From positions 90,278 through 154,277 of the forward strand of contig CALKWQ010000022.1 of NCBI GenBank assembly GCA_938003925.1: DNA of 64,000 nucleotides, given 5' to 3'. Below, in pieces: positions 1-19,665 of the stretch (its first letter is position 1; the number at the start of each line of letters is the position of its first letter). The notes beneath the pieces were generated by a model. The model had not been told where the DNA came from and did no database searches. It saw nothing but the letters and a program-made list of their open reading frames with translations. The position numbers and the translations under genes are program-made. The DNA is from an uncultured bacterium. Lineage in GTDB: Bacteria; Patescibacteriota; Patescibacteriia; Patescibacteriales; UBA12465.

Positions 1-1166
1 ATCTGCTCACTTTTATGCTCAAAAAACTCTGCCCAAGGAATATTACTGTTATACATTACTTTCAAAAAATTAAAATACACTTGTTTATCACCTGGGGCAA
101 TCAAATCAAATAACTTATTGAGTGTCTTGTTACTATTTAAAAAACCCTCAATGTCACCATGGTTTTTGAGTAAGTCATCCCAATCGGTTTTAATTGACTG
201 TGCTTCTTGCTGCAACTGATTCCAAAATACTTCTCTGTCTTTATTTAGTTCTTTTAACATTACCACACCCCTACGATGAGCCGGCAGATATCTGGATAAA
301 AATTCTTCAGTTAATATATAACCCTTAATACTTTGATAAGGCAGCTCTCCTGTTTTTAACAAGGCCTTAAACCTTTTGTGGTCTATTTGGCCATTTTTAT
401 CAATAAATTGCAACCAAGTGGAAAAATCATTTTGCTTAATATTATTATCGGCTATTTTTTTAAACCCCAAACGATCAGCTAAAGGAGTGTCTAGTAGCCA
501 AGACTTGCCAATTACCGCCGCTGCTTCTGGCTCCTTATCCAAAATATACTCCGCCACCACTCCCAAATCACTGCTAATTAATTCCGAGCCTAAATTTTTC
601 TCACCCGTGTTATAGAAATCTTCCACGTGAACCTCAACAAAATGATCAGCCTTAGAGAATCCATATTTTTCCAAATCCTGATACTTTTTGTCAGCGTCTC
701 TTTCAATACTGGTAATTTTATTAAAATTCAACACCTTAGTACTGCCCTTTCTGGCGTTACGTTCAGCCTCTTTTAAATCCTCCACCTCTAGATATTTTTT
801 AATATTATCTCTTTTTGCATCAATCAACTGAGATATTTTATCTACATCAAAACCGCTAGTCTCGTATAGATAGTCAACCTCTTGATAGAAGGCTTGTAAA
901 AATAAATCGATTTGGGGCTGATATTTATTAAAATTAAATTGTTCCAGATGGAATACGGGTCTTAAAATAATATTTTCGATTGGGCTAAAGTCCTTCATGG
1001 CTGCAGAAAATTTATAATCTCTCTTGTTTTTCTTGGTCGCCTGAAAGTTTTGCTCAGCATAAACTAGAGAAATTTTTGTAATCCTCTCAAAAAGCACAGT
1101 TTGCTGCTCCTGTTTATCCTCAGTCTCGATAAGACGACTAAGATTATTTAAGCCCTCAAACTTCAT
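1..1166 (-). CDS. hypothetical protein (3' end lies beyond the left window edge)
   Basis: Not in the ORF track because no stop lies in the window. There is a minus-strand ATG at 1166..1164 (MKFEGLNNLSRLIE...). I checked every in-frame triplet down to base 3 and found no stop (...FEHKSEQ at the edge). No family recognised. Confidence 0.6.
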   Translation of the reverse strand, partial: MKFEGLNNLSRLIETEDKQEQQTVLFERITKISLVYAEQNFQATKKNKRDYKFSAAMKDFSPIENIILRPVFHLEQFNFNKYQPQIDLFLQAFYQEVDYLYETSGFDVDKISQLIDAKRDNIKKYLEVEDLKEAERNARKGSTKVLNFNKITSIERDADKKYQDLEKYGFSKADHFVEVHVEDFYNTGEKNLGSELISSDLGVVAEYILDKEPEAAAVIGKSWLLDTPLADRLGFKKIADNNIKQNDFSTWLQFIDKNGQIDHKRFKALLKTGELPYQSIKGYILTEEFLSRYLPAHRRGVVMLKELNKDREVFWNQLQQEAQSIKTDWDDLLKNHGDIEGFLNSNKTLNKLFDLIAPGDKQVYFNFLKVMYNSNIPWAEFFEHKSEQ

Positions 1167-1304
1167 ATAATTTTAAAATTATCATTATACCTTAAGTTTA
1201 GCTGAAAAATATTAAAAAATGAAGCTGACATGTCCATGGCTATATATTTTTTAGGGAAATTAGCAATTGACGCCATGTTTTCGCTTAAAACATATAATAC
1301 TAAA

Positions 1305-1327
1305 AAACGGGCTTTTGGTGCCCGTTT
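1305..1327 (-). terminator. intrinsic terminator-like hairpin
   Basis: AAACGGGC / GCCCGTTT 8-bp stem with a 7-nt loop. The T-run is on the minus strand only (cccgtttttta). It sits between the TatC remnant and the start of the 1..1166 gene. Confidence 0.4.
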
Positions 1328-1458
1328 CTATGTTTGATTGAATTTGCCAACAAAATATAAGATCCTGTTTATGGAAGGTACCCATTTTCTTAGACACATT
1401 GTCCATGGGTCAATTGATATTGCCGACTGTACATTACAGGCGGCATTTTTAATTTAGT

Positions 1459-1719
1459 ATGTATTCGGGTGTTATCATAGTCTTTCAGATCCCTATCGTC
1501 ATTATTGGAGGAATCTCCCTGGGCATACTAAAAACAAAATTATTAGCCCTTAAACGTAAGTACATTTATGTGGGTTTAATGATTGCGCTGGCCATTATCA
1601 CTCCAACAACTGATTTATTTAGTCTGGCAATATTATTTATTCCCTGTGTTATTATTTTTGAAATCAGCCTCATTGTTGGTAAAGTCGTAGAAAAAATAAA
1701 TAAACAAAAAATTGAATAA
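1459..1719 (+). pseudogene. tatC: TatC C-terminal fragment (last two TM helices only)
   Basis: The 86-aa ORF ...KRKYIYVGLMIALAIITPTTDLFSLAILFIPCVIIFEISLIV resembles the conserved TatC TM5-TM6 region (RkyaivgafvvaaiiTPpDvfSq..lAiPl..LyEisi). There is an in-frame stop at 1450..1452 directly upstream and no ORF for the missing ~170 N-terminal residues. Confidence 0.45.
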
Positions 1720-1762
1720 AAATTTAGATTGCTTTACAACATAAATTTATCTAAAATTAAAA

Positions 1763-1792
1763 CAAAATCAGGCCATAATAGCCTGATTTTGT
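1763..1792. terminator. terminator hairpin after prx (repeat copy A)
   Basis: Perfect 12-bp stem ACAAAATCAGGC / GCCTGATTTTGT with a 7-nt loop and T-rich flanks on both strands. It lies 29 nt past the prx stop. The same stem recurs at 3313..3343. Confidence 0.7.
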
Positions 1793-1821
1793 ATTTTACC
1801 ACTATTAGCAGTGAGAATGAT

Positions 1822-2550
1822 TTAACTCTTAATATTCAACTCTTTTTCAATATCTTCTTTACTAATCTTTTTAGTGCAGAAAAACCAATCATAGCAATGC
1901 ATTTCATCTTTATTTTCCATTCTCTCTTTAGCAACACCACAAGAACCAGCCGTAGGTACAATCACCTCATCGCCCGGACGCCAATCAGCTGGAGTAGCAA
2001 TTGAAAACTTGTCGGCTGCCTGCATAGCAACTAAAGCTCTATATAGCTCATCAAAATTACGGCCTAAACTTAGAGGATAATAAATAATAGCCCTAATTAT
2101 TCCTTTAGGATCAATAAAGAAAACGGCACGTACTGCCTTAGTATTACTTTCTCCTGGCTGAATCATACCGTATTTCTTAGCAACCTCCATAGTAATATCC
2201 TCAATTAGAGGAAATTTAACCTCAATATCTTTTATGCCTTTATATTCAATCTTCTCCTTAATTGTTCTAAGCCAAGCAATATGACTATATAGACCGTCGA
2301 CTGATAAACCGACTAGTTTACAGTTAGCATCATTAAATTTTTGCTCCATGCTCGCAAAAGTCATAAACTCCGAAGTACAAACCGGAGTAAAATCAGCTGG
2401 GTGACTAAACAAAATAACCCAAGAATCTTTATAATCCTCAGGAAAATTAATTTCTCCCTGAGTAGTGACTGCCTTAAAAGTTGGTGCTTTGTCGCCTATT
2501 CTTGGCATCGCCACGATATTTTCTTGATTTGCAATAATTGCTCCATCCAT
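1822..2550 (-). CDS. peroxiredoxin, Prx6/1-Cys (archaeal-type) subfamily
   Basis: Contains WVILFSHPADFTPVCTSEF (peroxidatic Cys motif) and a C-terminal CGVAKERMENKDEMHC cysteine pair. The true start is probably MPRIGDKAPTF at 2508. Confidence 0.9.
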   Translation of the reverse strand: MDGAIIANQENIVAMPRIGDKAPTFKAVTTQGEINFPEDYKDSWVILFSHPADFTPVCTSEFMTFASMEQKFNDANCKLVGLSVDGLYSHIAWLRTIKEKIEYKGIKDIEVKFPLIEDITMEVAKKYGMIQPGESNTKAVRAVFFIDPKGIIRAIIYYPLSLGRNFDELYRALVAMQAADKFSIATPADWRPGDEVIVPTAGSCGVAKERMENKDEMHCYDWFFCTKKISKEDIEKELNIKS

Positions 2551-2572
2551 AAATTTAAAATTAATTATTAAA

Positions 2573-2848
2573 TTATTTCACAATTTTTATAGCTTTACCA
2601 TTTGTAAGAGCGTCAGCTATCTTTTTATAGGCCGAATAAAGGATTCTTTGATAAGTGCTAGGAGAGGTATTCATTGTTTTAGCAGCAGCTTGCTGATCCA
2701 GGTTACTTATATGCCGTAAACGATAAGACTCCATTTCCTCAATAGATAATTCAACGATTTCGAGATTTCTCATAGGCACCCCTTGGGGCTTAAAATAAGT
2801 TACCACCGGATTGAATGCTATTTTTCGACAAAGTCTTGGTCTAGGCAT
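2573..2848 (-). CDS. DUF134 (UPF0251) family DNA-binding protein
   Basis: MPRPRLCRKI...YFKPQGVP...EEMESYRLRHISNLDQQAAAKTMNTSPSTYQRIL matches the DUF134 pattern (MPRP..R.....FKP.G.......dE.EalRL.D...qeeAA..M.vSr.Tf.Ril). Confidence 0.8.
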   Translation of the reverse strand: MPRPRLCRKIAFNPVVTYFKPQGVPMRNLEIVELSIEEMESYRLRHISNLDQQAAAKTMNTSPSTYQRILYSAYKKIADALTNGKAIKIVK

Positions 2849-2943
2849 ATATATTGAAAATTATAGCAAATTTGCTATTATAACTCTATAAGAGAAGGCT
2901 CTCCGGCCCCTTTTTGTTAAGAGGCCGGTTCCCGTGCCTTCTT

Positions 2944-3186
2944 TTATTTTTGGCTTTTTAAAGCCTCTTTTTCTTTCTTAATCACTTCTAAGTCTGATAA
3001 CAGATCCTGTTCTTCTTCGTCTAAAACTTTTAACTGATCCTCTGGAGATAAAGAAGACTTGAGACCGCCCCTTCCCATTGTCCTTCGTCCACACCAAAAC
3101 AATCTCTCTCCGCCAGCACAACGACCCATTCTTCTGCCCGTTTTTGACCCTTGGCCCATTGGACCAGTTCCATCCATTCTTGGCAT
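2944..3186 (-). CDS. DUF5320 family protein
   Basis: MPRMDGTGPMGQGSKTGRRMGRCAG... followed by an acidic coiled-coil tail, typical of DUF5320, which commonly pairs with DUF134. I moved the start from the track position (3291) to the ATG at 3186. Confidence 0.7.
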   Translation of the reverse strand: MPRMDGTGPMGQGSKTGRRMGRCAGGERLFWCGRRTMGRGGLKSSLSPEDQLKVLDEEEQDLLSDLEVIKKEKEALKSQK

Positions 3187-3312
3187 AAATTTATTATTAC
3201 TATTTTTTATAACGACAGATCGACCTTTGCCCCTGCCTGTTATGAGTATATACCCATAACTATATTGAGTCAAACATACAAACCACGGCAATATATTTAA
3301 TCCAATATTAAA

Positions 3313-3343
3313 ACAAAATCAGGCCTTAAAAGCCTGATTTTGT
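3313..3343 (-). repeat. terminator hairpin, repeat copy B
   Basis: Same 12-bp stem as 1763..1792 (ACAAAATCAGGC/GCCTGATTTTGT) with loop cttaaaa. It shares the upstream flank aatattaaaacaaaa with copy C at 6446..6460. Confidence 0.6.
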
Positions 3344-3348
3344 GTTTT

Positions 3349-3385
3349 GCTCGGGGTCGTGGACGAAGTTCGAAATAGCGTGGCT
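3349..3385 (-). pseudogene. degenerate 3' fragment of tRNA-Gln (att-like direct repeat)
   Basis: gctcggggtcgtgga-cgaag-ttcgaa... aligns with the 3' acceptor/T-arm of the intact tRNA-Gln (gctcggggacatggattcgaacc, 6489..6511) in the same orientation, with a short insertion. It lacks the 5' half. Confidence 0.5.
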
Positions 3386-3401
3386 AAGATTAAATAAGAT
3401 T

Positions 3402-3532
3402 TTAACCCTTAATATTCAATTCCTTTTCAATATCTTACTTACTAATCTTTTTAATGCAGAAAAACCAATCATAACAATGCATTTCATTTTTACTCTCCAC
3501 TTTCTCTCTCTAACAAAACTACAAGAACCAGC
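3402..3532 (-). pseudogene. duplicated 3' fragment of the peroxiredoxin gene
   Basis: 3401..3500 matches 1821..1920 at about 90 of 100 bases (aligned by eye). Translation gives AGSCSFVRERKWRVK / EMHCYDWFFCIKKISK*DIEKELNIKG, compared with AGSCGVAKERMENKDEMHCYDWFFCTKKISKEDIEKELNIKS. There is one frameshift and one premature TAA. Confidence 0.8.
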
Positions 3533-3643
3533 TATTAACAAAACTTATATAATTAAAACCAAACTTAATGATAATAAATAATAAAAAGTACCTATTTTCT
3601 TTAATAATCTTCTTTCACTAAATAAGTAAAATTATTAATATAA

Positions 3644-3841
3644 CTACTTTTTCTTCCGCAATCTCATACTAATAATTGCTAAAATTAAAAATATTAAACC
3701 AAACCAAACATGGAGGTGAATAATTAATTCTCTAGAAGGTCCTTGACCTAAAATATAATTAACAAAAAGAGGAATTGATGTTAGTAATAAAATTATAAAA
3801 GTTGTTGTTCGAATTCTGTCAAGAATTTTATTATTAGCCAT
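3644..3841 (-). CDS. small membrane protein (2 predicted TM helices), hypothetical
   Basis: 65 aa with two hydrophobic stretches (TTFIILLLTSIPLFVNYIL and VWFGLIFLILAIISM) and a basic C-terminus. No family recognised. Confidence 0.4.
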   Translation of the reverse strand: MANNKILDRIRTTTFIILLLTSIPLFVNYILGQGPSRELIIHLHVWFGLIFLILAIISMRLRKKK

Positions 3842-3978
3842 AATAATTAATTATTTAAAGATATTTATTTATTAATTATAACATTTATTTTTTTAAAAGT
3901 CATTCTATAATAAAGATATTTGCTATTAACCTAATGATAATATATACTTAGATTATCTAACTATTATTTTAATAATAT

Positions 3979-4410
3979 ATGAAAGATATAGATGAGTTTG
4001 TCGATTTAATATTTGTAATAAACCGACTAACTAAAGAGGGGTTAGAAAATGAAAAAGGTTCGCCATCTTATATTCAGTTACAGACCTTATCATTTATATC
4101 CCGTCAAAAAAAACCAATTATAAAAAGCGTTGCTGAATATCTAAACATTACCGCGCCATCAGCTACTTTTTTGATAAATAATTTGATAAAACTAGAACTA
4201 GTTAATCGCTTACACAATACTCGAGACAAAAGAATGGTGCATTTAGTTATTAGTAAAAAGGGCAAAAAAGAGTTAGCAAAAAGTTTTTTAAGATCAAAAC
4301 AACACTTACATAAAAAATTATCCCTTTTATCAGCTAAAGAACGTCAAAGTTTTATTTTTATTTTGAAAAAAATTTCTTTATTATTAACAACTGATAAAAA
4401 TGAACATTAA
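3979..4410 (+). CDS. MarR family transcriptional regulator
   Basis: Winged-HTH pattern: LQTLSFISRQKKPIIKSVAEYLNITAPSATFLINNLIKLELVNRLHNTRDKRMVHLVISKKGKKEL. It overlaps the downstream permease by 11 nt. Confidence 0.8.
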   Translation: MKDIDEFVDLIFVINRLTKEGLENEKGSPSYIQLQTLSFISRQKKPIIKSVAEYLNITAPSATFLINNLIKLELVNRLHNTRDKRMVHLVISKKGKKELAKSFLRSKQHLHKKLSLLSAKERQSFIFILKKISLLLTTDKNEH

Positions 4411-5611
4411 AGCCGCTTTCTTTTTGGCTTACAAAACAATTGTTAGGGGCAGTAAAGGGACATTAATAATGACTATATTAATAATGACCCTAGCCTACGT
4501 AAATCTAATATTTATATCATCTATTTTTGGTGGTATTGTTGAGGCTATTAATGAACAATATATAGATAATTTATATGGCAATATAGTTATCACCCCAGCA
4601 AGTGATAAAATTTATATAGAAAATAAACAAACAAGCTCTATAAATCATATACCCGGCATAGTAGCTATTTCAGCTCACTATATAAATGATGCTTTAATTT
4701 CTTATGATGAGTATAAAGATGGTAATAACATACAACAAGGAAAATGGAAAATAAAATCTGTTAACGTTGAAGATGAAAAAAGAGTGACTGCAATTAGCGA
4801 TTCTATCATATCGGGCGAATATCTAGACGACAAAGATAGAGATAAAATAGTCATCGGAAAAGAAATAGCAGGTGGCCAGGGCGGGGATTTAGATTATCTT
4901 AGTTTAGGAGGTGTTCTTGTTGGCGATACAATAGATGTGAAATTTAGCAATAATATAAAAAGAACTTACACAATAAAGGGTATTTTTTCCACAAAAAATA
5001 ATCAAGCTGATCAAATGGCTTTTATTACCAGAAAAGAAATGGAATCAATCCTTGGAGTACATAATTTATCTTCAGAAATAATTATAAAAACAATTGAAAA
5101 AGGCCAGGAAGAACAATACATAGAGTCAATAAGACAATCTGGTTTTTACGATGAAGAGATAAGAACATGGGAACAATTAACCGGCTTTACTTCTAGTGCT
5201 AGTAAAAGTTTTATGATGATCAGTATTATTCTTGGTGCGATTGGAACGATAGTGGCGGGAATTACAATATTTATTATCATTTTTGTTAGTATCGTAAATA
5301 AAAGAAGACAAATTGGCATACTAAAAGCTATCGGCATGGAAGAAAGTACAATAATTTTATCATTTATTATGCAGGCTGTATTCTATGCTATCATTGGAAT
5401 CCTTTTGGGTATTAGTATAATTTTATTTGTCATCAGGCCATTTTTCGTAGACAATCCCTTAGACTTTCCGGTTGGATGGGTATCGTTAAAAATAACTTTT
5501 GACATAATTAAGATAAGTAATATTAGTCTTATGATAGCTGCTTTAATTGGTGGTTTTATTCCTGCTTTTAGAGGCACTAGAGAAAGTATTCTAGATGCGA
5601 TTTGGGGTTAA
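4400..5611 (+). CDS. ABC transporter permease, FtsX/MacB-like
   Basis: N-terminal TM helix, a large extracytoplasmic domain and a C-terminal FtsX-type 3-TM bundle (RRQIGILKAIGMEESTIILSFIMQAV...). Confidence 0.85.
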   Translation: MNIKAAFFLAYKTIVRGSKGTLIMTILIMTLAYVNLIFISSIFGGIVEAINEQYIDNLYGNIVITPASDKIYIENKQTSSINHIPGIVAISAHYINDALISYDEYKDGNNIQQGKWKIKSVNVEDEKRVTAISDSIISGEYLDDKDRDKIVIGKEIAGGQGGDLDYLSLGGVLVGDTIDVKFSNNIKRTYTIKGIFSTKNNQADQMAFITRKEMESILGVHNLSSEIIIKTIEKGQEEQYIESIRQSGFYDEEIRTWEQLTGFTSSASKSFMMISIILGAIGTIVAGITIFIIIFVSIVNKRRQIGILKAIGMEESTIILSFIMQAVFYAIIGILLGISIILFVIRPFFVDNPLDFPVGWVSLKITFDIIKISNISLMIAALIGGFIPAFRGTRESILDAIWG

Positions 5612-12778: not shown

Positions 12779-14752
12779 TTATTCAGGGCGACGAGAAAAA
12801 TCAATGACTTCGTCGGCCATAATATCCAGCCCCTCTTCGCCATCCATCTCTGATTCATTCAGAACTACTTTAGGTGCCACCGTCTTCTCTGGTCTACCTT
12901 TAAAGTCAACCGGCCGAGCTTGATGCAAAGATGACAAAGACAAAGCAGGGGTAGAGCTGGCTAAATTTTCCAATTCCTCACTCTTGGCCTGCTTACGCGT
13001 ATCTAATTCGGCCTTCTTTTCCTGTCGTTTTAGACTAAGGCAATCTTTACAAAAAACTGGCCGCACACCATCTGGCACAAATACAGTGGTAGTATCAACA
13101 CCACAACGGGCGCAGACAGCGGAATAAGATGGCTTGGCAGCAGCTGACTTAACTGGAGCAGGTGTTGCATTACGTGGCGCTGTAGTGGCGGTAGGGCGCC
13201 TTAACTGATCATTGCTTGATGCTGGGGCAGTACTGCGCGGCATTGCTGCTGCCTGGTTACTATTAGCCTTAACCACTAGTGGAGTTGAAAGAGTTGGAGT
13301 AGAACCTACCGAAATTTTATTAACTACCGAAGTAACGGTCGACCTAGGCGTGAGGGTGGGGGCTGATTGGCTAATGTTAGTAGCGACCTGACTTGTACTA
13401 ACGGCGCTCACAGGAGTGCTGGGCGCTATACGGGGAGCGCTAACATTAGAGTTAACAGCAACTGGAGCATCATCTGCTGCTTCATGCCAACGTAAAATCT
13501 TCTCCTCTACTTCAGCCCGACTACTAGCATATTTCTCGCGTGAATACGCAATAACCTTCTCTACGTTATTGGTTTTTTCCTCCTCTGTCAAAGGAGGCAA
13601 GCCTTTAGCAGAAAAAGGAGAGGAAGCAATACCATCGATCATTAATTTAAGATACATCTCGTATTTAGGTAGGTTGACCAAATCTTCTTCAGTAAAAACC
13701 GGGGCAAACTCTTTTGCCAACTCTTCAGCGTCAGTAGCGCCAACCCTGAACGAAACCATAGTGCCGACGTTACCAAATACTGCCGGTTTCACCTTTTCAC
13801 TTAACTGTTCAATATATTGGTGAGCCAAAATTAAATTCAAATGGTACTTTCTTGCTTCTGATAAAATATTTGCAAAACTGTCGGTGGAGAAATTTTGAAA
13901 TTCATCAATATATAAATAAAAATCTTTACGTTCTTTTTCCGGCATGTCCACACGACTCATCGCAGCCAATTGAATCTTAGTAATCATCATTGCCCCCAAT
14001 AAAGCCGAATTGTCCTCGCCAATACGCCCTTTACTCAGATTCATAATCAAAATCTTGCCCTCATCCATGATGTTACGAATATCGATAGATGATTTAACTT
14101 GACCAATTATATTACGCATTAAAGAGCTAGAAAGAAATTGACCAACCTTATTTTGAATAGGAGATACCGCCTCGGAAGCAAATTTATCCGCGTAAGACGC
14201 AAATTCTTTTTCCCAAAAAGCTTTAACAACAGGATCTTTAATATTAGCAACCACTCTTTTACGGTATGATTTATCCGATAACATCCGCACCACACCTAAA
14301 AGCGTAGAGCCAGGAAAATCCAGAATAGCTAAAATAGCATTACGCAAAATATACTCTAGGCGAGGCCCCCAAGAGTCTGCCCATAGTTTTTGGAAAACTC
14401 CCAGCAAACCAGAGGCGACTAAATGGCGTAAATGCGGCTCAACCTGTTCCAAAACATTAAAAGCAATCGGATAATCCATGTCCGATGGGTTAAAATATAC
14501 TACATCTTGAATACGGTTAGCTGGCACATACTCAATAATTTTTTCGGCTAAATCACCGTGAGGATCAACCACCGCCAATCCGTAACCGGCACGAATATCG
14601 CCCACAATCATATTCTCCTGAATGGTGGACTTACCCATACCTGTTTTCCCAATCAAATACATGTGCCGGCGACGATCGTCGGTTTTGATACCAAATTTTT
14701 TAAATTGATTGCGGAAAGTCGTTTGCGCGAACACCGCTATCTCTTCACTCAT
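12779..14752 (-). CDS. soluble VirD4/TraD-like (FtsK/HerA superfamily) P-loop ATPase with C-terminal zinc ribbon
   Basis: Walker A GKTGMGKS, Walker B FYLYIDEFQNF, and ARKYHLNLILAHQY. There is no N-terminal TM helix. The ~170-aa S/T/P/A-rich tail carries CARCGVDTTTVFVPDGVRPVFCKDC (CxxC-x17-CxxC). Confidence 0.7.
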   Translation of the reverse strand: MSEEIAVFAQTTFRNQFKKFGIKTDDRRRHMYLIGKTGMGKSTIQENMIVGDIRAGYGLAVVDPHGDLAEKIIEYVPANRIQDVVYFNPSDMDYPIAFNVLEQVEPHLRHLVASGLLGVFQKLWADSWGPRLEYILRNAILAILDFPGSTLLGVVRMLSDKSYRKRVVANIKDPVVKAFWEKEFASYADKFASEAVSPIQNKVGQFLSSSLMRNIIGQVKSSIDIRNIMDEGKILIMNLSKGRIGEDNSALLGAMMITKIQLAAMSRVDMPEKERKDFYLYIDEFQNFSTDSFANILSEARKYHLNLILAHQYIEQLSEKVKPAVFGNVGTMVSFRVGATDAEELAKEFAPVFTEEDLVNLPKYEMYLKLMIDGIASSPFSAKGLPPLTEEEKTNNVEKVIAYSREKYASSRAEVEEKILRWHEAADDAPVAVNSNVSAPRIAPSTPVSAVSTSQVATNISQSAPTLTPRSTVTSVVNKISVGSTPTLSTPLVVKANSNQAAAMPRSTAPASSNDQLRRPTATTAPRNATPAPVKSAAAKPSYSAVCARCGVDTTTVFVPDGVRPVFCKDCLSLKRQEKKAELDTRKQAKSEELENLASSTPALSLSSLHQARPVDFKGRPEKTVAPKVVLNESEMDGEEGLDIMADEVIDFSRRPE

Positions 14753-14774: not shown

Positions 14775-15062
14775 TTACAAAGCTAAACCGCTACCTAAAG
14801 TCTGCAATAGCTGCTGATAATAATCACGGATTAAAGGCGGCAAGTAAATTACACCGATAATTAAGGGTATAATAATTAATATGAGTTTTATCCAGCCGAA
14901 CAAACGCTGCCAAGCTACGTAGGTATTGATATGTTTAACCATGGCCTGAATTTCTTTAGTCATGGCTAAATTAGCCCGTAATAAAGCAGCCAGATCTTCC
15001 TTGTTTTCAGCCTGAATATCATCAACTTCTACAGAAGTCTGCAAAGGGGTCTGATTATCCAT
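14775..15062 (-). CDS. hypothetical C-terminally membrane-anchored protein
   Basis: 95 aa from the ATG at 15062 (4 nt after the nrdG stop). It has an acidic/coiled N-terminus and one TM helix (WIKLILIIIPLIIGVIYL). Confidence 0.5.
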   Translation of the reverse strand: MDNQTPLQTSVEVDDIQAENKEDLAALLRANLAMTKEIQAMVKHINTYVAWQRLFGWIKLILIIIPLIIGVIYLPPLIRDYYQQLLQTLGSGLAL

Positions 15063-15066
15063 ATAA

Positions 15067-15801
15067 TTAAATGCGGGCGCGACACTCTTGCACAAACTGC
15101 GCGCCTATTAAAGCAAAATTTTCTAAATCTTTATCCAAAAAAGTACTCTTATTCTCAAAAGAGTCATTTACCAATGTAGTATCTGCCTTAAATTTTTGCA
15201 AATACCAACGCTGAGCCCCCTGAATCATGGACCCCATCAGAGCAATATCCGACTCTTCGTGTAAACTGGGCACTAAAGTGGTCCTAAACTCGTAGGGCAA
15301 ACCGCTAGCCATTATTATTTTAACACTTTTTTGCAAATTCTCTAAATTTACCCCCACCCCCACCACTGCTTCATATTTAGACCAAGGAGCTTTAATGTCC
15401 ATGGCAATATAGTCAATTAGCCGGTCTTTAATTAATCGATCTAACATCTCCGGATTAGTCCCATTACTATCAAGCTTAACTAAGTAGCCTAAATCTTTGA
15501 TTTTCTTAATAAATTCTGGTAAATCATGATGCAGAGTGGGCTCGCCACCACTTATGACTATTCCATCTAACTTACCCCGCCTTTCTGCTAAAAAAAGAAA
15601 AAGGTCGTCCTCCTTAATCAGGGGATAACCTTTATCTTTATGTTTAGTATCTAGCTCCAACTCGTCAGTACGGCGGGGCCAGACAAGCATAGGGTTGTAG
15701 CAAAAATGGCAACGAAAATTACAAGATTGAGTAAAAACAATGGCTGCCAATTTATCAGGATAATCTAACAGGGTTAATTTTTCTAAACCGCCAATAATCA
15801 T
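15067..15801 (-). CDS. nrdG: anaerobic ribonucleoside-triphosphate reductase activating protein (radical SAM)
   Basis: CNFRCHFCYNP (CxxxCxxC cluster) and GIVISGGEPTL. GGAGG lies 9 nt upstream of the ATG. Confidence 0.9.
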   Translation of the reverse strand: MIIGGLEKLTLLDYPDKLAAIVFTQSCNFRCHFCYNPMLVWPRRTDELELDTKHKDKGYPLIKEDDLFLFLAERRGKLDGIVISGGEPTLHHDLPEFIKKIKDLGYLVKLDSNGTNPEMLDRLIKDRLIDYIAMDIKAPWSKYEAVVGVGVNLENLQKSVKIIMASGLPYEFRTTLVPSLHEESDIALMGSMIQGAQRWYLQKFKADTTLVNDSFENKSTFLDKDLENFALIGAQFVQECRARI

Positions 15802-15870
15802 ATAGGTGAGCCTCCAGGAGCCGCCGGGATATCACAACGGCCCTGTCCCCGCACCCCTTGATTAATTATT

Positions 15871-16014
15871 TTACTCAGAACAAGCAACCTTGAAAGTCTT
15901 ACGATCTTTATACTCAGAAGCCTTGCCCGGATTAAAGCTTTTAACTGGAGTTAACCAACCGACGACGCGGCTGTAAACAATGCATTCCTGACGTTGAGTA
16001 GTAATGGGGCTCAT
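15871..16014 (-). CDS. stand-alone glycyl-radical segment of class III RNR (47 aa)
   Basis: Below the track size cut-off. My translation is MSPITTQRQECIVYSRVVGWLTPVKSFNPGKASEYKDRKTFKVACSE. VYSRVVGW...FNPGK matches the NrdD C-terminal glycyl-radical motif (E. coli RRVCGYLG..FNAGK). An in-frame stop lies at 16044..16042 upstream. Confidence 0.65.
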   Translation of the reverse strand: MSPITTQRQECIVYSRVVGWLTPVKSFNPGKASEYKDRKTFKVACSE

Positions 16015-16087
16015 ATTAATTAATATTAGGTTGAAGGGCGATTAAGCGATGGATTCAACCGCTCAAAGCCAACTCCCCCTTAAATAT

Positions 16088-16116
16088 ATTATAAAATAAA
16101 TTTACCTAGAAAACAA
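16088..16116 (-). promoter_or_regulatory. promoter-like element inside the nrdD / glycyl-radical ORF gap
   Basis: Minus strand TTGTTT-17 nt-TATAAT. The region is AT-rich, so a chance occurrence is possible. Confidence 0.3.
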
Positions 16117-16117
16117 A

Positions 16118-18178
16118 CTAACAGGTAGAACAGCGCTCTGCTTGCATATCAGCACTAGTAAACCCCATCTCTTCGTCACATTTAGGGCAATATTTGTGCT
16201 CACCCGCCAGATAACCATGCTTGGGACAAATGGAAAAGGTCGGAGTAATCGTGAAATAGGGTAACCTATAGTTGTTAATAATCCTCTGGGCTAATTTCTT
16301 AGCAGCTTCACCATCTGGCAAACGCTCTCCCAAATATCCATGTAAAACTGTGCCACCAGTATATTTTATCTGTAAATCATCTTGTAAGTCTAAGGCGGTA
16401 AAAATATCATCAGAAAAACCAACTGGCAAATGAGTAGAATTGGTATAATAAGGAGCAGCTCCAGCTTTAACCGCCTCAGTATTAGCAAAAATCATATCTG
16501 GATAAAGCTCTAAATCTTTTTTAGCAAAACGATAAGTAGCTCCTTCACCGGGGGTAGCTTCTAAGTTGTAAAGGTTATTAGTCTCGTTCTGGTAATCCAT
16601 CAAACGCTCACGCATGGCGTTCATTACTTCAATTGCAAAAGCATGTCCTTCGGGAGTAGAAATATCTTTGCCCAACAAATTCAGTAAAGCCTCGTTCATA
16701 CCATTAATACCAATAGTATTAAAATGGTTCTGCCAGTAAGTGCCAAAACGTGCTTTAATATCAGACAAATAATGACAAGAATAGGGGTACAAACCATCTT
16801 CCGAAAATTTCTCAATAATCTTACGCTTAATCTCTAAGCTATCCTTGGCAACAGCCATTAACCTATACACCTGCTCAATAAACTCTTCTTTGGTTTTAGT
16901 ATTGTGACCAATACGAGCTAGATTTAAAGTAACCACACCCAAGCTGCCAGTTAAGGGATTAGCGCCAAAGAGACCGCCACCACGTTTTCTTAATTCACGA
17001 TTATCCAATCTTAAGCGACAACACATTGAACGAGCATCATCGCGATCCATGTCGGAATTTACAAAATTGGAGAAATAAGGAATGCCATATTTAGCCGTCA
17101 TCGCCCAAACTGGCTCCAAACATTCACGATCCCAATCAAAGGACTTATCAATCATATACGTAGGAATCGGAAAGCCGAAAACGCGGCCAGTGGAGTCACC
17201 TTCTAACATTACTTCCGCAAAAGCCTTATTGAACATATCCATTTCGGCCTGGAAATCTTTATACTTCTCGGGCATCAGCTGACCACCAATTACAACATTT
17301 TCCTCGCCTACCAGCTTAGAAGGAGTAACATCCATCGTAACATTAGTAAATGGCGTTTGAAAGCCAACACGAGTAGGCACATTGATATTAAACATGAACT
17401 CTTGTAAACCCTGTTTTACTTCTTTATAACTTAAATTATCATAACGGATAAAAGGGGCGAGGTAGGTATCGAAATTAGCGAAAGCCTGGGCGCCAGCCGC
17501 TTCTCCTTGCATAGTGTAAAAGAAATTAACAATCTGGCCCAAAGCGCTGCGAAAATGTTTAGGTGGTTTACTCTGCACTTTTTCCGGTACACCGCCGAAG
17601 CCTCTAATCAATAAATCTTTTAAATCCCATCCGCAACAATAGGGGGCTAATAAACCTAAATCATGAATATGTAAATCTCCATTCACATGAGCGTCGCGTA
17701 TAGCCTGGGGATAAAGCTTGTTCAACCAATAGCGAGCAGAAATCGCAGAAGCAATATAATTATTTAAACCTTGTACCGAAAAGCTCATGTTGCTATTCTC
17801 TTTCAAGCGCCAATCAGCTCTGCCTAAATAATCTTCCATTAACTTTTCGTCAGAAGTTGCTTTATTCAACTCGCGTAATTGACGATGCTGATCGCGATAC
17901 AAGATATAAGCTTTAGCGGTTTTAATTTGTTTATGTTCAATTAAGACTTCTTCCACTAAATCCTGAATTTCCTCAACTGCCGGGATGCTATTCTTATGAA
18001 ATTTCTTAGCAATTTTAGCTACCACTTCATCACTCAGTTGCTGAGCTAACGTCTCATCGTCAATTTCTACTGACAGAGCCGCTTTATAAATTGCCTGGGT
18101 AATTTTTGACTGGCTGAAGTCAACGATGTCGCCGGAGCGTTTCCGGAGTTGGGTAATGATTTCGAGCATGGGTTTCAA
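16118..18178 (-). CDS. nrdD: anaerobic ribonucleoside-triphosphate reductase (class III), lacking its glycyl-radical C-terminus
   Basis: N-terminal ATP-cone (RKRSGDIVDFSQSKITQAIYKA), a core conserved throughout, and the Zn site ICPKHGYLAGEHKYCPKC. It ends ...DEEMGFTSADMQAERCSTC* without an RxxGY motif. The track start at 18178 is TTG; an ATG lies at 18169. Confidence 0.9.
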   Translation of the reverse strand: MKPMLEIITQLRKRSGDIVDFSQSKITQAIYKAALSVEIDDETLAQQLSDEVVAKIAKKFHKNSIPAVEEIQDLVEEVLIEHKQIKTAKAYILYRDQHRQLRELNKATSDEKLMEDYLGRADWRLKENSNMSFSVQGLNNYIASAISARYWLNKLYPQAIRDAHVNGDLHIHDLGLLAPYCCGWDLKDLLIRGFGGVPEKVQSKPPKHFRSALGQIVNFFYTMQGEAAGAQAFANFDTYLAPFIRYDNLSYKEVKQGLQEFMFNINVPTRVGFQTPFTNVTMDVTPSKLVGEENVVIGGQLMPEKYKDFQAEMDMFNKAFAEVMLEGDSTGRVFGFPIPTYMIDKSFDWDRECLEPVWAMTAKYGIPYFSNFVNSDMDRDDARSMCCRLRLDNRELRKRGGGLFGANPLTGSLGVVTLNLARIGHNTKTKEEFIEQVYRLMAVAKDSLEIKRKIIEKFSEDGLYPYSCHYLSDIKARFGTYWQNHFNTIGINGMNEALLNLLGKDISTPEGHAFAIEVMNAMRERLMDYQNETNNLYNLEATPGEGATYRFAKKDLELYPDMIFANTEAVKAGAAPYYTNSTHLPVGFSDDIFTALDLQDDLQIKYTGGTVLHGYLGERLPDGEAAKKLAQRIINNYRLPYFTITPTFSICPKHGYLAGEHKYCPKCDEEMGFTSADMQAERCSTC

Positions 18179-18258
18179 AACGATCGCGAGATTGAAGAGC
18201 TAAAACTAGCCTCCAGGTTTTTAAATCTTAAACCGCGCCATCGCCGCAATATATTAAT

Positions 18259-18717
18259 TTATTTTTTGTCCTTAATTAACTTATTCAACTCACGCCTGAA
18301 CTCATTTGCGTCTTTGAAAGATTCATAAACGGAAGCATAACGGATATAAGCAACGGGGTCGGTTTTCTTCAAATGTTTCATCACCATTTGACCTACTTGA
18401 AGAGAAGTAATCTCATTCTGCCTTAATTTCTGCAAGTCCCTCTCAATACCGTGAACAATTTGCTTAAATTTATCCTCTGTAATGGGCCTCTTTTCCAAAG
18501 ACTTACGCAAACCGCTAACTAATTTCTCCCGACTATAGGATTCGCGTCGACCGTCACGCTTTACAATCATTAAGTCTAAAATTTCTATTTCTTCATAGGT
18601 GGAAAAACGAAAATTACACTTTAAGCATTCACGGCGGCGGCGGATAGAAAGGCCATCGGGAGCCACTCGAGAATCTACTACTTTAGTATCATTATAATAA
18701 CAGACCGGACATTTCAT
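18259..18717 (-). CDS. nrdR: transcriptional repressor NrdR
   Basis: MKCPVCYYNDTKVVDSR...CLKC zinc ribbon plus an ATP-cone. 152 aa. Confidence 0.95.
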   Translation of the reverse strand: MKCPVCYYNDTKVVDSRVAPDGLSIRRRRECLKCNFRFSTYEEIEILDLMIVKRDGRRESYSREKLVSGLRKSLEKRPITEDKFKQIVHGIERDLQKLRQNEITSLQVGQMVMKHLKKTDPVAYIRYASVYESFKDANEFRRELNKLIKDKK

Positions 18718-18732
18718 AAAAAAGCTTTAAAA

Positions 18733-18778
18733 CCTATATTTTGTGGGTATTTTCACTCACTAACCACTAAATATTGTG
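18733..18778 (-). promoter_or_regulatory. tandem NrdR boxes
   Basis: On the minus strand, tCACAATATTTAGTGg (18765..18778) and CCACAAAATATAGG (18733..18746), compared with the consensus acaCwAtATaTwGtgt. Centres are 32 bp apart, between the -10 box and the nrdR ATG. Confidence 0.6.
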
Positions 18779-18787
18779 ATTATCTCT

Positions 18788-18816
18788 ATTATAGCAGAAT
18801 ACCAAACCATGGTCAA
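18788..18816 (-). promoter_or_regulatory. sigma-70-type promoter of the nrdR-nrdD-nrdG operon
   Basis: Minus strand TTGACC (18816..18811), a 17-nt spacer, then TATAAT (18793..18788). Confidence 0.6.
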
Positions 18817-18889
18817 AATCAGCCAATATTCAGATAAAAAACTAATAAATCGAGGCCTCTAAAGTTTGCCTGTGGATAATTATGACTAC

Positions 18890-18917
18890 TAAAAACTCCG
18901 CCTTAGAGATAGGCGGA
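18890..18917 (-). terminator. intrinsic terminator after the GT2 gene
   Basis: CTCCGCC / GGCGGAG 7-bp stem with a 9-nt loop. The minus strand reads ggcggagtttttag. Confidence 0.65.
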
Positions 18918-18948
18918 GCAAAATCTAACTTGGAGCACTAAAAATTAA

Positions 18949-19665
18949 CTAAAAACGAGTTCTTAAGCGCATAATTTCACGTAAAAAAACCCAACCTTCA
19001 CGCCAGACCTTAATTTTACTCCGACGGTGACTATACCTGTTTTCTGACCAATTAACCGGGATCTCGCACAAACGATACGCTTGACGGTGAGCAAGATAGA
19101 TTAATTCTGTATCAAAAAACCATGCCCGGTTTAAGATTAGAGGAGAAATTGTTCGCCAAGCTGGAGCGGTGATGGCTTTAAAACCGCACTGTAAATCAGA
19201 AAAGTGATGACGCAGTAAATAGCGAGATAGATATAAATAGGCTTGTGAGCTAGACTCCCGTAACCAAGAACGGTTTTTTAACGAAGTCGGCAGCATTCTA
19301 GAGCCAAAGCTTAAATCAGCCTCCCCTGCTAAAATAGGTGATAATAAACTCGGTAAATCTTTTAAATCAACCGCTAGATCGATGTCCATATATACCAATA
19401 TATCAGCGTCGCTAGCATCAAAATAACTTTTAATAGCCAGACCTTTGCCGGCTTCTAAAACAACAAAACAGACTGCTTGTGGTCTGTTTTGATTAACGAA
19501 GTCTTGAACTAAATCACAAAAATCCTGAGTTGAGCCGTTGACAATAAACACTAGACGCCAACTATGAACCAAATTTAAAGCCTGTAAAAACTGCCAAGTT
19601 CTAGCAGCGTTAGCAGGAAAAATAACGTCTTCATTATAAACAGGTATACAAAAATCGATTTTCAT
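18949..19665 (-). CDS. family-2 glycosyltransferase (polyprenol-phosphate glycosyltransferase-like)
   Basis: MKIDFCIPVYNED N-terminus and a YMDIDLAVD (DxD) motif. It is ~238 aa with no TM region. Confidence 0.7.
   Translation of the reverse strand: MKIDFCIPVYNEDVIFPANAARTWQFLQALNLVHSWRLVFIVNGSTQDFCDLVQDFVNQNRPQAVCFVVLEAGKGLAIKSYFDASDADILVYMDIDLAVDLKDLPSLLSPILAGEADLSFGSRMLPTSLKNRSWLRESSSQAYLYLSRYLLRHHFSDLQCGFKAITAPAWRTISPLILNRAWFFDTELIYLAHRQAYRLCEIPVNWSENRYSHRRSKIKVWREGWVFLREIMRLRTRF

Follow-up and report, generated by a model that had tools for sequence, protein, structure and literature searches.

Does a gene for an anaerobic ribonucleotide reductase (RNR) that stops just before its radical glycine represent a broken gene, or one half of an enzyme encoded in two pieces? 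This question is raised by a locus of an uncultured bacterium of the Patescibacteriota (lineage UBA12465), located in a stretch of 64 000 nucleotides (nt) of contig CALKWQ010000022.1 (assembly GCA_938003925.1, positions 90 278 to 154 277), hereafter called the window, whose own numbering is used throughout. Four consecutive minus-strand genes are found there: nrdR (18259..18717), a large nrdD open reading frame (ORF; 16118..18178), an ORF of 47 amino acids (aa; 15871..16014) and nrdG (15067..15801). We propose that this locus is probably the nrdR, nrdD-large, nrdD-small, nrdG operon of a naturally split class III (anaerobic, glycyl-radical) RNR, in which the radical glycine is encoded by a separate small gene.

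The large ORF specifies 686 aa if begun at TTG, although translation probably begins at the ATG at 18169, as in database homologues, for a product of 683 aa. Besides the Pfam ATP-cone, it matches the Pfam family NRDD (PF13597) over profile positions 1–530 of 562 (599.5 bits; cutoff 26.2), NCBIfam NF006126 over positions 3–661 of 684 (1018 bits; cutoff 548) and TIGR02487 (517 bits; cutoff 326). An ATP-cone, a catalytic barrel and a zinc motif, C-P-K-H...C-P-K-C (ICPKHGYLAGEHKYCPKC; 16178..16228), can thus be assigned to it. The zinc motif, kept in all homologues, aligns with the zinc-ribbon region of Thermotoga maritima NrdD (4COI, residues 552–609) and is predicted to bind zinc. The segment SMCCRLR lies at residue 381 of the 683-aa form and is also present in two distant split homologues described below (L082 and L085); the pairwise alignment with T. 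maritima NrdD left this segment uncovered, and its assignment to the finger loop follows the two-cysteine type described in PMC9669993. The polypeptide ends ...ICPKHGYLAGEHKYCPKCDEEMGFTSADMQAERCSTC at a TAG codon (16120..16118), 19 codons past the Cys/His zinc motif, these last codons (16121..16177) forming a C-terminal tail, DEEMGFTSADMQAERCSTC. No RVxG[YFW] glycyl-radical motif is found on the large polypeptide, the ORF stopping at NRDD position 530 of 562. By sequence, the system fits class III RNR, except that the glycyl motif is not on the catalytic polypeptide.

The 47-aa ORF (15871..16014, minus strand) reads MSPITTQRQECIVYSRVVGWLTPVKSFNPGKASEYKDRKTFKVACSE. It matches NRDD over positions 530–562 of 562, i.e. 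the last 33 (E = 2.6e-7, above the gathering score), and NF006126 over positions 649–683 of 684. Both profiles are thereby divided between the two ORFs, which indicates that the large protein has no glycyl-radical motif of its own; judged from these profiles, the two ORFs together make exactly one NrdD, the small ORF being the missing piece. Within RVVGW, Gly19 (codon 15960..15958) is predicted to bear the radical. NRDD was the sole Pfam match of the 47-aa ORF at E ≤ 10, with no match to the Gly_radical family of the pyruvate formate-lyase (PFL) type (PF01228), and no second copy of the small ORF was found in the window. Relative to the large ORF its frame is +1, and an in-frame stop lies upstream at 16044..16042. 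An initial annotation of the locus had already described a large ORF without a glycyl-radical motif and a 47-aa ORF supplying one in a different frame. Its coordinates for the large ORF, the TAG codon, the 103-nt gap, the 47-aa ORF and the in-frame stop, and the sequence TTGTTT-17-TATAAT that it noted in the gap, were all retrieved on the sequence.

Homologues of the large protein were collected from NCBI, JGI, ENA and Logan assemblies, and formed 120 clusters among the matches listed, at 80–100% identity. All 120 are 671–703 aa long and end 12–40 residues past CPKC in a variable tail, without a glycyl motif. Exact look-ups of the large and small proteins of the window in a contig index gave no match. 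A scan of one genome per species was then exploited by taking the best 80 of 523 loci encoding relatives (65–92% identity), which belong to Falkowbacteria, Parcubacteria and other Patescibacteria. One of these loci (L064) stops short of the junction, and in the 79 with a complete junction the small ORF is found downstream of the large gene (79/79); in one locus (L060) it is partly masked by Ns (around 2830) and yet starts MSPIQTQRQ. A contiguous in-frame nrdD in sister genomes, which according to the initial annotation would have revealed an error in this assembly, was not seen in any of the 79. The split and the small ORF are thus conserved across the related candidate phyla radiation (CPR) genomes in which the annotation had proposed to look for them.

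Two features of the small ORF stand out in these loci. Its frame relative to the large gene is 0, 1 or 2 in 38, 19 and 22 loci, respectively, and its start codon is ATG in 79 of 79. This ATG is followed by a conserved N-terminus, usually (S/A)PIxTxR-Q-E-C, so that the typical small protein begins MSPIxTxRQEC and continues with VYSRVVG(W/Y). The glycyl loop of the clade nearest to the window departs from the near-universal RVVGY-LRPV-xQWNxGK and reads RVVGW-LTPV-(K)NYNPGK, and the canonical loop is retained in deeper split lineages (L072–L080, L082). The sequences compared suggest that, once the enzyme was split, the loop evolved in concert with NrdG or the barrel.

Both pieces are under purifying selection, as estimated by the ratio of non-synonymous to synonymous changes (pN/pS; Nei–Gojobori estimates across loci). 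The ratio is 0.09 for the 20 codons up to the end of CPxC, 0.19 for codons 1–6 of the large-subunit tail (DEExGx) and 0.89 for codons 7–12 of this tail. For the small ORF it amounts to 0.23 as a whole, with 0.35 for codons 2–8, 0.12 for codons 9–20 (the glycyl loop) and 0.25 for codons 21–40. These low values denote a constraint at the amino-acid level on the N-terminal extension of the small ORF and on the first part of the large-subunit tail. By the same estimates, the rest of the tail, whose total length varies from 12 to 42 aa across the 79 loci, drifts nearly neutrally.

The gap between the two genes (16015..16117, 103 nt in the window) measures 18–249 nt across the 79 loci, with a median of 85, and its sequence diverges freely among relatives, with the exception of a promoter-like motif. 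In the window, this element (16088..16116, minus strand) consists of TTGTTT (16116..16111), a 17-nt spacer and TATAAT (16093..16088). In the eight closest relatives, the segment right after the stop codon is invariant (TTTGTTTT...TTTATNNTTATAAT), while neighbouring coding wobble positions vary; in more distant relatives, the form TTGTAA-N17-TATAAT is found. For the gap promoter, a comparative motif count was used instead of a generic scan: TTGNNN-N16-18-TANAAT was counted in 32 of the 79 gaps, where shuffled sequences would yield 2.1, and in 2 of 1829 control windows of equal length inside nrdD. This conservation points to an internal promoter serving the small ORF and nrdG, probably in many lineages.

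Between the putative −10 hexamer and the start of the small ORF, an extended hairpin (16028..16080, minus strand; predicted RNA fold of −20.2 kcal/mol, z-score −2.3) lies in the putative leader of the small ORF. Long imperfect hairpins of different sequence occupy the same place in seven close relatives (L001–L006 and L058), with z-scores from −1.4 to −4.8 when the window is included. The hairpin could stabilize the mRNA as a 5′ stem, have a regulatory role or be left over from the inserted DNA. Long inverted repeats are also present in many more distant gaps (L045, L047, L073, L075 and L079). The 5′ arm of the hairpin includes AAGGGGGAG (16081..16073), which might have been taken for a ribosome-binding site; since it lies 59 nt upstream of the small-ORF ATG and within a hairpin arm, it is not the Shine–Dalgarno site of this ORF.

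How the split is built becomes clearer by comparison with contiguous NrdDs. We retrieved 120 of these, as contig-edge fragments, with a chimeric query spanning the junction; their sources are Planctomycetes, Bacillota, Bacteroidota, archaea and some Parcubacteria/Paceibacterota. Their consensus reads FSICPxHGY..GEH..CPxC, then 2–8 residues, then (C/T)EVYSRVVGYLRPVxQWNxGK (for example, CPKCDDEQPCEVYSR), so that at the junction CPxC and [CT]EVYSRVVGYLRPV are separated by 2–8 aa. At the corresponding place, the window shows CPKCDEE, then MGFTSADMQAERCSTC, the stop codon, 103 nt and MSPITTQR, and then QECIVYSR. Compared with the short hinge of contiguous relatives, the split behaves as an insertion into this hinge, and on this alignment the insertion site appears to lie where the zinc motif is linked to the conserved (C/T)-E-V-Y-S-R (Cys-x-Val-Tyr-Ser-Arg in the window). 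Contiguous relatives thereby define an insert of approximately 180 nt after CPKC in the window, the segment that the initial annotation had wished to see delimited by a homologue alignment. The same arithmetic gives approximately 100–300 nt in relatives, with a minimum of approximately 96 nt in a locus with an 18-nt gap (L030). Such a hinge insertion would have introduced the stop codon together with a promoter and a new start codon.

This geometry is also what an intron would produce. If the tail, the gap and the N-terminal extension (approx. 180 nt) formed a small intron, self-splicing or excised in some other way, its loss would recreate ...CPKCDEE|RQECIVYSR..., a normal protein provided that the excision were precise, since only 2–8 residues separate CPxC from (C/T)EVYSR in contiguous relatives. 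Group I introns are known from the nrdD genes of T4 and some other phages (PMC3653736), and a stable hairpin is present in the gap. However, a search of Rfam over 15000..19000 (cmscan, E ≤ 10) returned no group I or group II intron and nothing else of relevance, and the insert, hypervariable in length and sequence, shrinks to approximately 96 nt, far under any known self-splicing core. Furthermore, the insert holds an ATG in 79 of 79 loci, two protein-constrained segments (SPIxTxR and DEExGx, pN/pS 0.35 and 0.19) and a conserved promoter-like motif. We hence consider an intron very improbable. Fusion of the two ORFs during translation, by ribosomal frameshifting, stop read-through or the bypass raised by the initial annotation, is less probable still. 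The two ORFs of the window do lie side by side on one strand and differ in frame, as such recoding would have it; yet every frame of the gap is closed by several stops, the more distant relatives share no conserved take-off or landing sequence, and all three relative frames are common (38, 19 and 22 loci) over gaps of 18–249 nt, so that no single recoding mechanism fits the family. The invariable ATG and the promoter-like motif favour independent initiation instead.

A broken gene, whether a pseudogene inactivated by insertion or decay or the product of a sequencing or assembly error, the bacterium obtaining its deoxynucleotides otherwise, would suit the reduced genomes of CPR bacteria, many of which depend on hosts, and an NrdD truncated before its radical glycine would be inactive alone. 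Against this stands the identical break in the 120 listed protein clusters and in 79 species genomes from many independent projects, which leaves no room for an error in one assembly; decay is equally incompatible with the strong purifying selection on the large gene (pN/pS 0.09, and 0.19 at the start of its tail) and on the small ORF (0.12–0.35), and the neighbouring nrdG and nrdR are intact. A broken gene is accordingly as hard to credit as recoding. Finally, the two proteins could be joined after translation, for example by a protein trans-splicing of split-intein type or some other ligation, and RNR genes do often host inteins (PMC3653736). Nevertheless, the extensions are far too short for this, with a variable tail of 12–42 aa on one side and an N-terminus of approximately 8 aa on the other, tail codons 7–12 are nearly neutral (pN/pS 0.89), and neither ORF has an intein match in Pfam, where a weak sub-cutoff TipAS match is the only one beyond NRDD and ATP-cone. 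Of these explanations, protein joining is the one to which we would grant the least credit. A genuine and conserved two-gene class III RNR is, as far as gene structure is concerned, very likely. A radical domain on a separate polypeptide, one of the options of the initial annotation, is thus upheld by conservation, selection and a start codon of its own, while the replaceable nature that this option also ascribed to the polypeptide stays conjectural.

The two-piece form extends beyond these loci. A search with the 47-aa ORF retrieved 109 stand-alone database proteins, all of 41–65 aa, several of them named ‘anaerobic ribonucleoside-triphosphate reductase’ by annotation pipelines; small ORFs of this kind are thus already in public annotation. 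A profile of these peptides, compared with 1.84 billion cluster representatives, gave 4039 matches at E ≤ 1e-3, including 387 at E ≤ 1e-10. The best 150 of the 4039 are all 47–115 aa long, and 143 of 147 newly retrieved sequences begin with M, their N-termini being diverse. Where the genomic context is available, the arrangement is recognizable: locus L082 (61% GC) displays nrdR, an nrdD of 676 aa, a small ORF of 59 aa and nrdG, followed by a desulfoferrodoxin gene, its large subunit being 62% identical to that of the window with the same split hinge, and locus L085 (33% GC) displays a large subunit of 734 aa (47% identity) followed by a small ORF of 88 aa. A further contig (L081) is too short to show whether its gene is split. 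Judging from these sequences, the two-piece form is common well beyond the clade of the window; the split, shared by lineages at 47–62% identity and 33–61% GC, may have arisen once or several times.

Three other candidates deserve mention. One (L086, protein P0310) was rejected as a true split, as a run of Ns (a scaffold gap, around 1266..1303) breaks a contiguous nrdD; at least one of the best 150 peptides is an artefact of this type. Two others (P0274 and P0319, 106–115 aa, on contigs of approximately 1 kb) carry a CxxC...CxxC zinc-ribbon motif of their own before the glycyl loop, a hint that other lineages may be split at a second place, upstream of the zinc site. Among the 80 loci, L080 shows the large-plus-small unit tandemly repeated over 219..4741 every 2267 nt (ORFs 219..2261 and 2286..2474, followed by 2459..4528 and 4553..4741) before a single nrdG. 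This tandem may be either a real duplication or an assembly artefact.

How could such an enzyme operate? In one-piece NrdD, the C-terminal loop enters the barrel and places the glycyl radical beside the finger-loop cysteine. The two products of the split locus likely come together as an active enzyme whose radical is carried by the small peptide. We infer that this assembly would be non-covalent, that NrdG would activate the small peptide, and that the split may bring some benefit. The 47-aa small subunit would be translated from its own ATG and carry only the glycyl-radical loop (RVVG19W) and a short following segment. NrdG would take a hydrogen atom from Gly19 of the peptide, either free or docked, and the peptide would sit where the covalent C-terminal loop sits in one-piece NrdD, beside the finger-loop cysteine, catalysis proceeding onward as in ordinary NrdD. 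As for the interface, the conserved stub DEExG(F/Y) on the large side and the N-terminal MSPIxTxR-QEC on the peptide side are the foremost candidates.

The radical glycine is also where oxygen cuts the protein chain. After such a cleavage, only a ‘cartridge’ of 47 residues would need replacing, a built-in counterpart of the GrcA/YfiD spare part of PFL, and separate transcription with nrdG could yield an excess of this cheap, replaceable radical carrier. Taken further, the peptide would be a diffusible and consumable radical cofactor, made from its own promoter with nrdG in excess over the large subunit, activated by NrdG off the enzyme, docked in an empty barrel and swapped once oxygen has cut it at Gly19. 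We put forward this last scheme only tentatively and consider it rather improbable; were it correct, no earlier glycyl-radical enzyme would depend in this way on a radical site provided in trans, and the split would have been selected, possibly several times independently, as a strategy against oxygen damage.

Several observations weigh against this reading of the locus. A generic scan for promoters and terminators did not call the gap promoter, because its −35 hexamer matches at only 3 of 6 positions, and the promoter-like motif is detectable in only 32 of the 79 loci. Most small ORFs at these loci are without a Shine–Dalgarno sequence. The count of stand-alone peptides is an upper bound, because some small database proteins are artefacts of scaffold gaps, as at L086. 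The peptide, the complex and its activity are predicted from the genes, and structure predictions added little: a fused large-plus-small construct reached a mean pLDDT (predicted local distance difference test) of 36 without an alignment, and with a block alignment of 119 rows (A3) a mean pLDDT of 68 and a predicted template modelling score of 0.60, the tail and the glycyl loop staying below 50. Foldseek on the fused model retrieved NrdD structures only, at a template modelling score of approximately 0.3 and a root-mean-square deviation above 20 Å. These predictions are unreliable around the junction and do not place the glycyl loop with confidence. That the split serves the repair of oxygen damage via an exchangeable peptide is a notion that we regard as doubtful.

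To our knowledge, the radical glycine of characterized glycyl-radical enzymes lies on the catalytic polypeptide, the only exception being GrcA/YfiD (and T4 Y06I). Structures of one-piece class III RNR, in which NrdD is served by the activase NrdG, come from T4, T. maritima, P. copri and S. thermophilus. The split enzyme belongs to the same family as one-piece NrdD (NF006126/TIGR02487) and shares with it the ATP-cone, the zinc motif, the putative finger-loop segment SMCCRL, RVVG(W/Y) and the nrdG and nrdR neighbours. It differs in that the last approximately 33 profile positions, with the radical glycine, are on a separate polypeptide of 44–62 aa, which is initiated at a start codon of its own and often has a promoter-like motif to itself, and, in the clade closest to the window, in a loop reading GW-LTPV-NYNPGK instead of the canonical GY-LRPV-QWNxGK.

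The closest functional analogue is GrcA/YfiD (also T4 Y06I), a free small protein that is activated by the cognate radical-SAM (S-adenosylmethionine) activase and complements the PFL barrel in trans, including a cleaved barrel (PMC8683613). The same study, in 2021, considered only the two PFL spare parts as validated, with none for other glycyl-radical enzymes (PMC8683613). Like the small ORF, GrcA is a small free-standing protein with a glycyl-radical loop; it is, however, a protein of 127 aa with a disordered N-terminal half and belongs to the PFL-type Gly_radical family, whereas the 47-aa small ORF matches NRDD only. GrcA backs up an enzyme that, being in one piece, possesses a glycine itself. 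In the split enzyme, the large subunit lacks a glycyl loop in all 79 loci and all 120 listed clusters, which implies an obligatory peptide rather than a spare one.

RNR catalytic subunits split into two adjacent genes have been described in other classes, namely the class II NrdJa/NrdJb (PMC9669993) and the class I nrdA-a/nrdA-b of phage Aeh1 (PMC3653736), the latter reported to be still functional (PMC3653736). Their split points are different, and the radical-storing residue stays with the barrel there; moreover, a homing-endonuclease gene made the Aeh1 split, and no such gene is found at the locus of the window. In phages, nrdD itself is interrupted by introns or inteins, as in T4 (I-TevII intron), Lactococcus phage 949 and Clostridium phage c-st (PMC3653736). 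There, recognizable elements are removed as RNA or protein. In the present case, neither an intron nor an intein signature was detected; the insert varies too much and is too small, and its two flanks act as independent protein ends. In the full-text library searched, which covers few subscription journals, we found no account of an nrdD divided in this way, with its glycyl peptide encoded apart.

An RNR that is always in two pieces would offer a natural minimal substrate of approximately 5 kDa for studying how the activase recognizes a glycyl loop, and a direct test of the exchange of a radical domain after oxygen damage. It could also explain how CPR bacteria, with small genomes and a largely anaerobic life, make deoxynucleoside triphosphates under fluctuating oxygen. 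In annotation, the large gene seems truncated and the small one is easily overlooked or called ‘hypothetical’; as a consequence, metabolic reconstructions could wrongly score such genomes as being without a working RNR.

Cysteines at the ends of the two proteins were also considered. The large-subunit tail terminates in CxxC, CC or CxC at 26 of the 79 loci (16121..16135 in the window), and a cysteine is present in the C-terminal tail of the small ORF in 44 of the 79 (15871..15885 in the window). Such ends, also present at L085, recall the cysteine pairs that act as redox shuttles at the C-termini of class I and II RNRs, or a metal site between the subunits. The metal site gained no support, as no significant association was detected between Cys-rich large tails and Cys in the small-ORF tail (Fisher p = 0.10, uncorrected for phylogeny).

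The remaining genes of the locus complete the picture. Directly upstream of nrdD, nrdR (18259..18717, minus strand), the transcriptional repressor of RNR genes, matches Pfam Zn_ribbon_NrdR (E = 1.9e-20) and ATP-cone (E = 2.1e-19). No NrdR box was found in the gap between the large and small genes. Shortly before nrdR (18764..18779, plus strand), a palindrome, CCACTAAATATTGTGA, weakly resembles an NrdR box, with three mismatches to ACACWATATATWGTGT; it is the only such match within the 64 kb, a count at chance level. On the other side, nrdG (15067..15801, minus strand), the radical-SAM activase of class III RNR, matches NCBIfam TIGR02495 (NrdG2; E = 1.7e-59, 200 bits, cutoff 131) as well as Pfam Radical_SAM, and a gene with the activase cysteine motif (CxFxCx[FWY]C) is found downstream of the small ORF in 77 of the 79 loci, at a median spacing of 33 nt. 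In the window, this spacer (15802..15870, 69 nt, minus strand), GC-rich within a genome of 41% GC, contains a GC-rich hairpin (predicted fold of −26 kcal/mol, z-score −1.95) followed by a strong GGAGG ribosome-binding site. No site of this kind adjoins the start codon of nrdD-large or of the small ORF. Further along the same strand, a neighbouring ORF of 657 aa (12779..14752) displays a P-loop (GKTGMGKST) near its N-terminus, a long low-complexity stretch rich in Ala, Ser, Pro and Thr, and a C-terminal CxxC...CxxC motif.

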